The notes: a model not told the origin generated them from the sequence alone. DNA of 46,971 nt from Minisyncoccota bacterium (GCA_031401615.1 JANNRS010000033.1:1-46971), one strand, 5' to 3'. Shown: positions 7,090 to 38,368, counted from the stretch's first letter. Program-made: numbers and translations.

Positions 7090-10000
7090 TTATTCTTCGT
7101 GATTCTTAATATCGTTAACCTTGAGTACCTTTCGATCTCGGAAACCGGTCCCTGCTGGGATTAATCTTCCAACAGTAACATTTTCTTTGAGTCCTCGGAG
7201 AGTATCAGTCCCACCTTTAATAGCGTTGGTAATCAAAACACGATTTGTGTTTTGGAAAGAGGCGGCTGAAATCCAACTCTTAGCAAAGAGGGCTGTCTGA
7301 GTAATACCCAAAATGATAAGGTCAGCCTTGGCTTCTCGCAGTCCCATATCTCGCATCTTAGCATTTTCTTCAATAAGATCAGTAACTTCAATAGTGTCTC
7401 CAATAGAGAAAGCACTTTCTCCAGCATCTTTAACTTTGCGTCGTGAGAACATTTGTCTAACTATGATTTCCAAATGCTTTCGAGCGATTGCGGCACCTTG
7501 AAGCTCATAAACTTTACTAATTTCTCGAACAATGTAGTCTTCAGCCATTTCTTTTCCTCCAAATTCATAAACTTCATCAATGTTAGCTGAACCATCTGTC
7601 AGAAGTTCACCAGCTATAACATCTTGACCTGCTTTTACAATAGCAATACGACGTGGGTTAACAACATATTCAACACTTTCTTTTTTAGCTTCTTTATCAC
7701 TAGAGAGCACAACAATTATTTTGTCTGTCCCATCTTCTTTAATTTCAGAAACAGTACCAGCATATTTATTAACAAGTGACGGATTTTTGATTGTTCGACA
7801 TTCGAATATTTCTTCAACACGTGGAAGTCCCGCTGTAATATCGATACCAGCAAGTCCGCCGGCGTGGAAGGTTCGGAGAGTGAGCTGTGTCCCCGGTTCA
7901 CCAATGGCTTGAGCCGCCACAATACCAACAGCTTCACCTTTTTCAATTAAGTGTCCCCTTCCGAGGTCAAGGCCGTAACATGTTCGGCAAATACCGTAGA
8001 CTGTTTTACAAGTCATAGGAGTTCGGACGAAAACTTCCATCACACCTTTTTGTTCTACTAGAGTTGCATCATCTTTCATGATGAGATGTCCTTTCTTAAA
8101 GAGAGTTGTGCCATCTGCTAGAGTAATATCCTTAGCCAAAATTCTACCTCGAATTGTCTTACCAATTGGAATTTCAAGTCCAGAAATAACTTCTTTAATA
8201 ACCCTCTTTGAAAGTTTAGTTCCACAATCCTCTTCAGTAATAATGACGTCTTGTGCCACATCAACCAGACGACGAGTTAGGTAACCAGCTCGAGCAGTAT
8301 TAAGCGCTGTGTCGGCCAAACCTTTACGAGAACCGTGGGTAGTGATGAAATATTCAATAGGAGAAAGTCCTTCCTTATAAGAAGGAATAATCGGGAAATC
8401 AATAGTTCGTCCTGTAGTATTTTGAATCATACCCTTCATACCAGCCATTTGAGTCACGTTACTCATACTTCCTCGAGCACCTGAGGTAATCATGTCGTAG
8501 ACAGAGCTGTGTTTTTTAACAGTTGCAGTCAAGGCTTTTTCAATTTCACTTTTAGCTTTATTCCAAACTTCAATAACTTTTTGGAAACGTTCCTCCTCTG
8601 AAAGAAGCCCGTCTTCAAATTGAGTCTTGATAGCATCTTCCATAGCACGATGATTGGCAATAATAGCTGGCTTTTCTTTTGGTACAACAACATTATCAAT
8701 CCCCCAAGTTACACCAGAGCGAGTTGCGTATTTATATCCAAAATTTTTGATTCTATCAAGAACCGGAGCAATAGCGGCAATACCAAAATCAGAAATTAAA
8801 GTATCAACTATACCAATAATCTTCTTAGCGGTAACTTCGTCGTTCGTATAGGGAAACTCTGCTGGTAAGATAGAGTTAAAGAGTAGACGTCCAGCTGTTG
8901 TCTCAAAAGGTTTACCGCCAAATTGTTCATACTTTGGATTATTGGTTCCGAGAACGAATATCTTGGCACGATATGATACGGCACCTAAGTCATAAGACAT
9001 AAGCGCTTCATTTGGACTAGCAAAATACATACCTTCGCCCTTGTCACCATCAACAATAGAAGTCATCCAATAACAACCGAGCACGATATCCAACATTTTT
9101 GATGACACAATTGGGTCACCGTTTTGTGGTTTAAGTAGGTTCTTATCAGCTGCAACAATAGTTTTTGCTTCATGTTGAGCAGTATCAGAGAGCGGTAAAT
9201 AGACTCCCATTTGGTCACCATCGAAGTCAGCGTTAAAAGCTGGACAAACGAGTGGGTGGACTTGGATAGCATTACCTTCAATCAACACAGGCATAAATGC
9301 TTGAATACCAAGTCTGTGGAGTGTCGGCGCTCGGTTTAAGAGTACATACTTTCCAGCAATAACTTGTTCGAGAATTGCCCAAACTTCTGGAATACCATCT
9401 TCAATCAATTTGTTAGCACCACGAATATTAAATGCCAATTCTTGTGAAATTATTTTCGAAATTACAAAGGGCTTGAAAAGCTCCAGCGCCATGTGCTTTG
9501 GAAGTCCACATTGATTAAGTTTTAGATTTGGACCAACAACAATAACACTTCGCCCAGAATAGTCTACACGCTTACCGAGTAAGTTCTGTCGGAACAAACC
9601 TTGTTTACTTTTGAGGTTATCGGAGAGAGATTTGAGGGCACGACGTTGTGCCTGACTCATGGCTGGAGAATCCTGCCCAGCAATACTGTTATCAATAAGA
9701 GCATCTACTGCTTCTTGCAAAATACGCTTTTCGTTTCGGAGAATAACATCTGGAGCACCTATTTCTTTTAATTTTCGAAGACGATTGTTTCGATTGATAA
9801 CACGACGGTAAAGGTCGTTGATATCAGATGTCGCATGTCGACCACCTTCAAGAGCCACCATCGGACGAAGGGCTGGTGGGATAACTGGAATACGAGTTAA
9901 GAACATCCATTCAGGGCGAATACCGGCATACATCATGCCTCGAATAAGTGAAAGGCGCTTGTTGAGTTTTTCACGCTCGGCGGCCCCAGCTTTTTCCAAA

Positions 10001-25839: not shown

Positions 25840-26002
25840 TGGTTGCCAGACCTGGAATCTCACTACTCGCTTCGCTGCGTTTTGACAACCTCTCGGTTTT
25901 CAACGCTCGCTTCACTCACTGCTTTCCTCCACAGGGAAACTCCCGTTTCCCTGACACCCTTCCCGTTCTCGTCTAGGTCGCACCGTTCACCATGTTCACT
26001 GC
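25840..26002 (-). other. GC-rich module A ending in a displaced tRNA T-stem/acceptor fragment with encoded ACCA
   Basis: On the minus strand the module ends ...GAGATTCCAGGTCTGGCA-ACCA. The 13-mer TCCAGGTCTGGCA repeats at 26003..26015. Internal hairpins are CAGGGAAA/TTTCCCTG (25932..25953) and AACC-GAGA-GGTT. The track ORF 25843..26076 is probably spurious. Confidence 0.5.
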
Positions 26003-26097
26003 TGCCAGACCTGGACTCGAACCAAGATAATATCCTTCAGAGGGATACGTCCTACCCGCCTAGACTCGACGTCTAGTCGAGGCTGGCCATTAGACGA
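26003..26097 (-). pseudogene. Disrupted tRNA-Gln(CUG)-like copy
   Basis: 49 nt (26007..26055) are identical to tRNA-Gln 26125..26173. The D-loop is split after the conserved GG by a ~31-nt GC-rich palindrome (26056..26086). The 3' acceptor is TCTGGCA but the 5' strand (TAACTCT) cannot pair with it. Confidence 0.55.
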
Positions 26098-26119
26098 AGA
26101 GTTAAACTTTTATACAAGG

Positions 26120-26190
26120 CTGGGAGACCTGGACTCGAACCAAGATAATATCCTTCAGAGGGATACGTCCTACCATTAGACGATCTCCCA
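26120..26190 (-). tRNA. tRNA-Gln (anticodon CUG)
   Basis: Manual cloverleaf: TGGGAGA/TCTCCCA acceptor, GTCT/GGAC D-stem, TATCC-CTCTGAA-GGATA anticodon arm, CTTGG-TTCGAGT-CCAGG T-arm. 71 nt, no full encoded CCA. Confidence 0.9.
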
Positions 26191-26317
26191 GCCTTGTATA
26201 AAAATTAATTTAATTAAATATATACTTCTTCAAGAACTTTCTACCTGCAGAAGATTTAAAATATTTTTCTCTTTTTCTTGCATCTATTCTAGCGAGAAAT
26301 TGCTCTTCATATACAAC

Positions 26318-26372
26318 TTGCCAGACCCGCCTCGACTTGCAGAAGCTTGTCGACGCGAGGCGGATCTGGCAA
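26318..26372. repeat. GC-rich palindromic hairpin carrying both orientations of the TGCCAGA acceptor-like heptamer
   Basis: TTGCCAGACCCGCCTCG, a 21-nt loop, then CGAGGCGGATCTGGCAA. The stem is 17 bp with one mismatch. Its arms resemble the insert in the pseudo-tRNA D-loop. Confidence 0.7.
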
Positions 26373-37748: not shown

Positions 37749-37885
37749 ATGGATTTGCGCGATCGACGGGACTTTCCCTCGACTCTCGGTTCGTCAGTCA
37801 CTCACCTCGGTCTGGGCACCACCTCACGGTTTCACCTGATGGCTCAACATCGCTCCGGTGTTCGAGCCCCTAACTCTCATTCATA
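37749..37885 (-). other. GC-rich module B ending in a displaced copy of the tRNA-Asp T-loop/acceptor
   Basis: Minus strand 37774..37756 reads AAGTCCCGTCGATCGCGCA, against AAGTCCCGCCGTTCGCGCA in tRNA-Asp (37942..37924). It shares the colinear motifs GTGAGTGA and AACCGAGAG with module A. The track ORF 37749..37952 is probably spurious. Confidence 0.5.
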
Positions 37886-37913
37886 TAAAAAAGCCCAAAG
37901 TAATGTTGGGCTA
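37886..37913 (-). terminator. Rho-independent terminator of the tRNA cluster
   Basis: Minus strand reads AGCCCAA-CATTACT-TTGGGCT followed by TTTTTT. Confidence 0.6.
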
Positions 37914-37925
37914 TTTTATATGATG

Positions 37926-37999
37926 CGCGAACGGCGGGACTTGAACCCGTAACCTCCCGCGTGACAGGCGGGTGCTCTAACCAGTTGAGCTACGTCCGC
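37926..37999 (-). tRNA. tRNA-Asp (anticodon GUC)
   Basis: Manual cloverleaf: GCGGACG/CGTTCGC acceptor, CCCGC-CTGTCAC-GCGGG anticodon arm, ACGGG-TTCAAGT-CCCGC T-arm with an A49-C65 mismatch. Confidence 0.9.
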
Positions 38000-38040: not shown

Positions 38041-38114
38041 GTGTCGAGGGAGAGGCTCGAACTCTCGACCTTAGCTTTATGAGTGCTACGCTCTAACCAC
38101 CTGAGCTACCCCGA
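38041..38114 (-). tRNA. tRNA-Met, elongator type (anticodon CAU; could also be a lysidine-modified Ile2)
   Basis: GTCGGGG/CCTCGAC acceptor, CTCATAA anticodon loop, GAGAG-TTCGAGC-CTCTC T-arm. Confidence 0.85.
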
Positions 38115-38176
38115 CAATGAAGAAAATATAGCACATTATAGGGTTTTTTCAAGATAAACCATCTTAAAAATTACTG

Positions 38177-38247
38177 TTGCGGGGCCACGAATCGAACGTG
38201 GGCCTCAAGGTTATGAGCCTTGCGAGATACCTCTTCTCTACCCCGCG
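38177..38247 (-). tRNA. Initiator tRNA-fMet (anticodon CAU)
   Basis: C1-A72 mismatch (CGCGGGG / CCCCGCA), A11:U24 in the D-stem, CTCATAA anticodon loop, CCACG-TTCGATT-CGTGG T-arm. Confidence 0.85.
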
Positions 38248-38338
38248 GTATATATTTGAATGTAATACCGTTCCTTATCTATAATACTGCGGACTGGCTC
38301 ATAACCTTAAAGGTTACTCGCTCTACTGTATCCTCTCG

Positions 38339-38368
38339 GAGATACCTCTTCTCTACCCCGCGGTATAT
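38339..38368 (-). repeat. 30-nt direct duplicate of the tRNA-fMet 5' acceptor/D-arm plus 6 nt of upstream flank
   Basis: gagatacctcttctctaccccgcggtatat occurs at 38224..38253 and again at 38339..38368. Confidence 0.7.

Follow-up and report, generated by a model that had tools for sequence, protein, structure and literature searches.

A displaced tRNA-Asp end marks a putative member of a tRNA-flanking element family in Patescibacteria

The 3' end of a tRNA-Asp gene is found a second time, in nearly the same form, a short way downstream of the gene. What lies between the two copies, and why would the end of a tRNA be kept outside its gene? We address this question for a stretch of 46,971 nucleotides, hereafter the window, to which all positions refer unless a relative is named.

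The tRNA-Asp locus and its surroundings

The window is chromosomal CPR DNA (Nomurabacteria/Paceibacteria). Its GatA is 85% identical to that of a Candidatus Nomurabacteria MAG and 50-77% identical to those of other Paceibacteria. The ORFs tested (about 30, against Pfam) are housekeeping only: RpoB/C, RpoD, DnaG, TrmD, RNase R, RNase J, PyrG, FtsEX, RF2, BipA, a DEAD helicase, GatA, LigA, pilins and a prepilin peptidase. The same survey found no integrase, transposase or reverse transcriptase in the 47-kb window. On the minus strand tRNA-fMet, tRNA-Met and tRNA-Asp are followed by a terminator palindrome, a GC-rich segment and the displaced repeat, and the gatA-fMet-Met-Asp synteny is widespread in relatives. 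The features of the locus are the following.

38176-38247, minus strand: tRNA-fMet
38041-38115, minus strand: tRNA-Met
37925-37999, minus strand: tRNA-Asp(GTC), the resident gene (ARAGORN; Rfam tRNA 65.8 bits)
37924-37942, minus strand: first sense copy, S1, the last 19 nt of tRNA-Asp
37881-37923, minus strand: terminator palindrome between tRNA and module (inverted repeat, terminator scan)
37860-37876, minus strand: degenerate antisense arm, A (inverted repeat)
37774-37862, minus strand: full-length match to the covariance model R1, which describes the P2+P3 core (29.7 bits, E=3.6e-6)
37821-37859, minus strand: P2 hairpin (pattern match, covariation, fold)
37776-37816, minus strand: P3 hairpin, lineage variant (fold, alignment to the covariance model; same variant in L005)
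37756-37774, minus strand: second sense copy, S2, of the tRNA-Asp 3' end, from T-loop A58 to position 75

S2, AAGTCCCGTCGATCGCGCA (37774..37756), matches the tRNA-Asp 3' end, AAGTCCCGCCGTTCGCGCA (37942..37924), at 17 of 19 positions; by a rough estimate of our own, which is not a computed test, such a match would arise by chance within 400 nt with a probability of about 1e-6. The segment between the terminator (GC stem 37892-37912, then a T run) and S2 has 58% G+C, compared with 39% for the window. The displaced copy, separated from its gene by terminator and GC-rich segment, had been described in the original prediction and is borne out. So are the accompanying remarks that S2 would form a Watson-Crick pair 49:65 where the resident gene has a mismatch, which the tRNA scan also flags, and would break pair 5:68. 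The prediction had read these two differences as the product of a recombination junction inside the T-loop, and on this point the relatives indicate otherwise. S2 is identical to the tRNA-Asp 3' end of one related genome (L078), and its position 68 is that of the closest relative (L004), whose 5:68 pair is U-A and not A-U. S2 therefore appears to carry a tRNA-Asp variant that occurs in related genomes.

The closest relative has no module at its tRNA-Asp locus. Three contigs from two other samples (L001-L003), with identical neighbouring proteins, hold both modules of the window in identical form; as these contigs end within tRNAs, they are uninformative on presence or absence among strains. 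Judged against the flanking genes, the whole fMet-Met-Asp cluster (about 430 nt; 3322-3747 in L004, 37925-38247 in the window) points in opposite directions in the window and in L004, and other relatives show that it has flipped repeatedly. At its tRNA-Met, L004 instead carries a duplication on the 5' side that forms an acceptor-stem minihelix with a UAAGCGAAGCUUU loop. In the window, a second copy of the first 30 nt of the tRNA-fMet region (5 nt of leader, acceptor 5' strand, D arm) lies exactly 115 nt upstream (38224-38368, minus strand), and a purine-rich GUAGAGCGAGUAA and a 13-nt perfect antisense of the anticodon arm (38296-38308) lie between the two copies. This duplication, of which similar cases occur in L019, L026, L036, L054, L083 and L020, looks like a 5'-side counterpart of the 3' modules.

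A covarying core between copied tRNA ends

The arrangement recurs. At about 17 of 48 related tRNA-Asp loci the tRNA is followed by a terminator palindrome, an antisense copy of the T-loop and 3' end, a core and a sense copy from C56. By hand tally about 13 of the 48 carry an R1-type module, and a few more modules are short, of a different core type (type A, see below) or decayed. The repeat reproduces the 3' end of the relative's own tRNA-Asp, though its sequence varies by genome (19/19 in L008, L029, L042, L051 and L076; 18/19 in L062; 17/19 in L049; 16/19 in L005 and L031), and lies 150-180 nt downstream of the gene. In these relatives a 9-bp hairpin with a CUGC loop often interrupts the antisense arm, which ends at the complement of T54-C56 (...GAA), and C56 is the exact first position of the sense copy. 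Other relatives have this layout after tRNA-Met, tRNA-fMet and tRNA-Thr, with arms taken from the tRNA concerned, and in L046, L078, L041 and L062 modules are embedded in tRNA operons, with no terminator.

Where copies are well kept, pairing of the antisense arm continues through the discriminator (positions 73-75) and beyond, and together with the tRNA end the arm makes one long perfect palindrome across the terminator. A continuous S1-terminator-A palindrome, sometimes perfect, is found in L079, L033, L082 and L057, and direct repeats extend far beyond the tRNA in L111, L131 and L042. Units stand in tandem in L042, L057, L079, L054, L029 and L182, with differing P3 subtypes in the tandems of L029 and L057. 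The unit in L042 (8845-9420; tRNA 3' end, terminator, antisense arm, core) is repeated at least twice before an N stretch and may be either a real array or an assembly artefact.

The family element is a three-way junction of helices P1, P2 and P3. The closing helix P1 is formed by the antisense copy (A) and the sense copy (S2, from T-loop C56) of the neighbouring gene's end. P2 comprises helix Pa, an internal loop G(G/C)A opposite GA, helix Pb and a variable tip. A GGG linker joins it to P3. The base of P3, GUCGCGAA/UUUGUGAC, holds two G.U pairs, both conserved, together with a bulged A that lies 8 nt ahead of the junction; the upper stem is variable. P3 abuts the sense arm without a linker, so that P3 and P1 can stack.

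Several lines of evidence support this architecture. A P2 pattern gave 17 GC-rich matches in 847 kb of relatives' loci, every one downstream of a same-strand tRNA, and RNAalifold applied to an unguided alignment of relatives recovered Pa with no broken pairs and full covariation. For an independent test of P2 we used metagenome copies picked by a P3 pattern alone. The GA of P2 is present in 107 of 111 such modules; Pa and Pb are fully paired in 63 of the 107, compared with 4.5% when partner strands are swapped between modules, and 16 Pa and 30 Pb pair combinations occur. Mismatches in P2 of these modules are more often G.U than A.C (16 vs 3), which points to folding on the tRNA-sense strand. 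P1 mismatches show no bias of this kind (26 G.U vs 24 A.C). A 40-sequence alignment, A3, is 98% paired with double changes in 14 of 19 pairs; none of 500 shuffles matches the real pairing and slid controls reach 37-47%. As the A3 seeds were picked for perfect Pa/Pb and the P3a pattern, the evidence free of this constraint lies in the diversity of pair types and in the covariation of upper P3. The helix tips are rich in GCGAAGC-type loops, which are unusually stable in DNA.

R1 found 21 matches in 800 kb of relatives' loci, 21/21 beside tRNAs. The match at 37774-37862 is the sole significant one in the window, and the near relative L005 is among the 40 seed sequences of the model. The next-best match in the window (7873-7941, minus strand; 12.3 bits, E=0.14) lies inside rpoC, has a P2-like AAAGGUGAAGC...GGUGAACCGGGG and is most likely due to chance. 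The core in the window begins 63 nt after tRNA-Asp, compared with a family range of about 50-320 nt from a same-strand tRNA.

The family-consistent fold of the window copy is also its unconstrained minimum free energy structure (-40.2 kcal/mol). P1, of 6 bp, pairs GGGGCU (37865-37870) of arm A, which also supplies CGAAC to the junction, with AGUCCC (37768-37773) of S2. The antisense arm is degenerate, and by hand count it matches the antisense of the tRNA-Met T arm at 14/19 positions vs 10/19 for tRNA-Asp. P2 is canonical (ACC-GGA-GCG ... CGU-GA-GGU): ACC of Pa (37857-37859) pairs with GGU (37821-37823), GGA (37854-37856) faces GA (37824-37825), and GCG of Pb (37851-37853) pairs with CGU (37826-37828) below a variable tip. 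In P3, CCCAGAC (37810-37816) pairs with GUCGAGGG (37776-37783); this is a paired variant, common to L005, in which a GA internal loop replaces the consensus base, and several consensus pairs are non-standard in its alignment to the covariance model. The apical loop motif GAGUGACUGACGA (37791-37803) recurs identically in one metagenome copy. Comparison of the window with L005 shows compensatory changes in Pb and, in P3, a C-G pair replaced by U.G.

The window holds a second module, at tRNA-Gln.

25841-25981, minus strand: Gln-locus module with a type A core
26001-26056, minus strand: decayed partial copy of tRNA-Gln, upstream of the Gln module (ARAGORN and Rfam, weak)

This module combines a partial antisense arm GACCUAGA, the core and a sense copy UCCAGGUCUGGCA at 25844-25859. 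Type-A homologues with local-tRNA arms follow tRNA-Asp in L031, tRNA-fMet in L066 and tRNA-Thr in L008 and L043; the alignment of these 4 sequences defines no more than one hairpin. The two modules had been proposed to be related on the basis of two shared words. Both words, GTGAGTGA (37798-37805) and AACCGAGAG (37783-37791), occur where the proposal had placed them, on the same strand and in the same order, and at no other locus of the window; in the Asp module both fall within P3. As evidence of common origin they are at chance level. Under a first-order Markov null the probability is 0.51 for a shared 8-mer, 0.20 for a shared 9-mer and 0.15 for two separate shared 8-mers, so such sharing is expected for two purine-rich segments. 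The words also occupy non-homologous structural positions: GTGAGTGA overlaps the recurrent P3 apical-loop motif (GAGYGACNGRCGA) in the Asp module and a variable linker in the Gln module, and AACCGAGAG forms the stem and GNRA loop of the conserved type-A hairpin in the latter but a P3 strand and internal loop in the former. A MAFFT alignment of the two modules gave no convincing homology. They are thus alike in architecture and in a purine-rich loop vocabulary (GAGYGA..GCGA) and differ in their core. The GC-rich segment at tRNA-Asp is accordingly no random spacer. A coding remnant was rejected, as the spacing of the words differs by 7 nt between the modules and leaves no common reading frame.

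The decayed tRNA-Gln (region 26001-26100, minus strand) has 56 nt in common with the intact gene. A hairpin of 31 nt is inserted in its D-loop, and its acceptor 3' strand reads UCUGGCA, not UCUCCCA. It is this decayed copy, and not the intact tRNA-Gln, that the type-A sense arm matches. The intact gene (26105-26206, minus strand) is enclosed in an inverted repeat of 23 nt, which lengthens its acceptor stem by 16 bp, and upstream of it (26318-26372, minus strand) is a 17-bp hairpin UUGCCAGAuCCGCCUCG/CGAGGCGGgUCUGGCAA whose ends resemble the acceptor stem of the decayed copy.

Breadth of the family and the source of its arms

A metagenome survey with one narrow P3 pattern returned at least 120 loci, and the same pattern had no match in viral contigs. 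Among the 122 matches listed, 81 follow a same-strand tRNA at a distance of at most 320 nt, 7 stand on the 5' side of one, 15 are too near a contig end to judge, and 19 have no called tRNA within 320 nt. The 7 matches on the 5' side lie in the leader of tRNA-Asn and have mirror-image arms (sense, core, antisense); some modules sit between tRNA-Asn and promoter-like sequence, the promoter being judged by eye. The adjoining tRNAs (88 of the 122 matches listed) represent about 18 amino-acid identities, and it is usually the local tRNA from which the arms are copied. In 41 copies of a 'T-loop class' the sense arm is 93% identical to the local tRNA (19/19 in 15 of them) and the antisense arm about 79%. 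Their breakpoints are fixed whatever the tRNA: A ends at the complement of T54 and S2 begins at C56. A second arm class (Ala, Lys, Arg, Glu, Val) has arms of about 5-7 nt from the extreme 3' end of the tRNA. The direct repeat may be as short as about 4-7 nt or as long as 50-60 nt or more. No neighbouring protein family recurs around the at least 120 metagenome copies.

In L203, L174, L097 and L167 the core follows the terminator of the topoisomerase I gene (topA), and topA coding sequence (TKTIPER) about 90 nt upstream is the source of the arms. The element is therefore not strictly limited to tRNAs. The topA S2 copies are more alike each other than their own S1, which suggests that the duplication is old.

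In four other loci (L178, L158, L162, L191) a large serine recombinase gene stands convergent to, and immediately 3' of, a tRNA-Asn with a 5' module. The recombinase may mark an integrated element at that tRNA-Asn and is probably unrelated to the module, from which the tRNA separates it; we rejected it as a module partner. In L143 a small insertion (about 170 nt) splits a module inside its P2 region; with its terminal inverted repeats of 12 nt (ACACCAACATTG/CAATGTTGGTGT) and a duplication of 8-9 nt (GGCGAGCC), it looks like a MITE. The modules themselves were rejected as MITEs or IS-derived elements: their arms differ by host gene, their repeats vary from about 4-7 to 50-60 nt or more, and in the windows examined cores within a single genome can differ, with one R1 match in 47 kb.

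A direct repeat of a tRNA 3' end, with the resident tRNA intact, is also what tRNA-targeting integrative elements produce. Tyrosine-integrase att sites lie in the T-loop or 3' end of tRNA genes, and casposons generate target duplications of 14-15 bp at tRNA 3' ends. The leading idea of the original prediction was an integrative-element site; as a scar, it would be an attL/attR remnant left after deletion of the element body. The start of the repeat in the T-loop, the classical integrase crossover region, and the missing module in L004 agree with such a scar. It would nevertheless predict neither the antisense copy of the tRNA end nor the covarying core, both missed in that first reading, and it leaves unexplained why this core stands beside about 18 tRNA types at hundreds of loci with a spacing of 150-180 nt kept across genomes. 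The segment between the repeats is only about 150 nt, conserved, covarying and strand-specific, and neither an integrase nor Cas1 accompanies it: element genes are missing among the roughly 30 ORFs of the window compared with Pfam, and no protein recurs near the metagenome copies. Unlike a fixed target duplication, the repeat also varies widely in length. We consider an att scar, and arm-type sites of integrative elements with it, very improbable.

The arms could also be by-products of replication. Template switching around stable hairpins, followed by palindrome extension, would copy the flank first inverted and then direct; the arms would have no function of their own and only the core would matter. 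The continuous and sometimes perfect S1-terminator-A palindromes fit this explanation, as do arms drawn from any upstream sequence, coding DNA included, and the missing RNA-type mismatch bias in the arms. It does not account for the fixed arm boundaries (T54 complement; C56) in every T-loop-class copy or for the location of the core beside tRNAs, and in topA, S1 lies about 90 nt from the hairpin, so that S1, hairpin and A are not contiguous. We regard this explanation as unlikely.

RNA, folded DNA and the place of the family among known systems

Rfam 15 scans at gathering and permissive E-value thresholds, covering the window, 12 relatives and 5 canonical metagenome copies, returned only tRNAs and noise. 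RNase P, SRP, tmRNA, 6S, riboswitches, ribozymes and group II introns were rejected for want of a match to their Rfam 15 covariance models. Also set aside, because their defining motifs are absent or Rfam is silent, were a group II intron fragment, hammerhead or HDV-type ribozymes, a T-box, C/D or H/ACA guides, retrons and DGRs. A full-text literature search found no description of the module, with subscription journals outside its coverage and a prior description possible. To our knowledge, no known system combines a conserved core, host-gene arms in both orientations and fixed T-loop breakpoints. We consider the element family absent from Rfam 15 and categorically new, with the reservation that it may prove to be a new family within orphan structured RNAs.

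Group IIC introns come close in some respects. They insert behind intrinsic terminators, and the module lies directly behind a terminator hairpin; its P3 has a bulged A 8 nt from the 3' end, ends in AC like domain 6 and is preceded by a 3-nt linker. In contrast to these introns, the module has a core of about 90 nt without domain 1, no Rfam group II match and no reverse transcriptase, and its P2 does not correspond to domain 5, which has 34 nt and an AGC/CGC triad.

Another parallel is offered by integron attC sites and CTX-phage attP(+). These share with the modules the order of sense site, body, antisense arm, variable loop and sense arm, the preservation of structure more than sequence, a strand-specific fold and the possibility of arrays. 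The module could thus be a non-autonomous mobile DNA element acting as folded single-stranded DNA. Its A/S2 stem would imitate the duplex T-loop and 3' end of a tRNA gene, and a recombinase or HUH enzyme encoded by the host would place the unit behind the gene, yielding the order sense, body, antisense, loop, sense. Judged by attC and CTX biology, S1-terminator-A-core-S2 would be the formal product of such a folded-hairpin integration. Target-derived arms for about 18 tRNA types and even the 3' coding region of topA, patchy distribution among relatives with absence from L004, tandem arrays, variable repeat length, S1/S2 identity exceeding A/S2 complementarity and the perfect long palindromes of some copies are all in accordance with this idea. 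So is strand specificity: the modules are on the gene-sense strand, which is leading by GC skew and has the sequence of the lagging-strand template.

Several observations stand against it. No recombinase, transposase or reverse transcriptase is encoded in the window or recurs near the at least 120 copies, no association with IntI or Xer was seen in the loci examined, and viral contigs hold no match. Unlike attC and attP(+), the module has no R/L boxes (GTTRRRY, by eye), its 'cassette' is geneless, its arms copy the local host gene and a conserved three-way junction bearing sequence motifs forms its loop. In an active MITE family the cores of one genome would be near-identical; here they vary (types A and B in the window, different P3 subtypes in the tandems of L029 and L057). 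The topA S2 copies indicate an old duplication, and deep structure with compensatory change, together with vertical inheritance between the window and L005, is more typical of a functional RNA. We view a folded-DNA element as possible, if on balance doubtful.

Rather than a folded-DNA mobile element, we favour an RNA that is transcribed along with the tRNA, the segment 37756-37876 (minus strand) being a diverged, structurally intact member of a large strand-specific tRNA-flanking family in Patescibacteria (CPR). We assign this joint reading a probability of about 0.5. It is favoured because of the G.U bias in P2 and the conserved G.U pairs in P3, the compensatory evolution between the window and L005, the copies inside tRNA operons and tRNA leaders, and the deep conservation without an associated protein gene. 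The functional form would be an RNA of the tRNA-sense strand, made by read-through of the tRNA terminator or directly within a tRNA operon or tRNA leader. Its core may be a protein- or RNA-binding, possibly catalytic, domain, clamped by arms that would be local copies of the host gene's end. Cores would have spread among tRNA genes by duplication or transposition, followed by long vertical inheritance; pre-tRNA processing, a decoy function and self-propagation are candidate roles. Transcription may be weak, since most copies, that of the window included, have a terminator-like hairpin between tRNA and module, and the window module has no predicted promoter.

Some results count against an RNA. 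The P1 arms show no excess of G.U over A.C, and the S1/S2 direct repeat (93%) is better kept than A/S2 complementarity (about 79%). The fold energy of the window module is unexceptional (z=-0.34), and the helix tips are rich in loops of the DNA-stable kind. The long palindromes reaching past the discriminator look like templated copying at the DNA level and not like selection for tRNA mimicry.

An RNA of this kind would have partial counterparts in YrlA/Y RNAs, viral tRNA-like structures and mascRNA-type signals, in which the closing helix likewise repeats tRNA acceptor and T-stem sequence, and some modules lie in tRNA operons, where tRNA-processing enzymes act. The module differs from these RNAs in that the P2/P3 junction replaces the T-loop, the T-loop/D-loop elbow is lost and pairing of the antisense arm through the discriminator leaves no free NCCA end. 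It also matches no Rfam model, and some modules use non-tRNA arms. Of the two origins first suggested, integrative-element sites or a conserved RNA, the latter came closer, and Rfam excludes the known housekeeping RNAs.

A further reading would cut across RNA and DNA. The modules might form a new class of protein-less, self-propagating elements, RNA or DNA, that copy gene ends, a proposal we put forward tentatively and consider rather improbable. A core of about 90 nt, possibly catalytic or a guide scaffold, would install itself behind or before tRNA genes and build its closing helix from an inverted and a direct copy of the host gene's end. The breakpoints at the T54 complement and C56, the bulged A and the arms from about 18 tRNAs and topA would then be footprints of a nucleic-acid-templated insertion chemistry.

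CPR genomes are tiny and streamlined, yet many of their tRNA genes bear a structured appendage of about 150 nt with deep covariation. As an RNA, the appendage would represent a large orphan class tied to tRNA biology, with possible roles in processing, as a decoy or in the sensing of tRNA. As a DNA element, it would be a mobile unit that encodes no protein and takes its arms from its target, a new insertion logic and a possible source of programmable targeting. Either reading accounts for the assembly breaks at these tRNAs and for the pseudo-tRNA calls of tRNA finders, and R1 provides a concrete covariance model for annotating CPR genomes.
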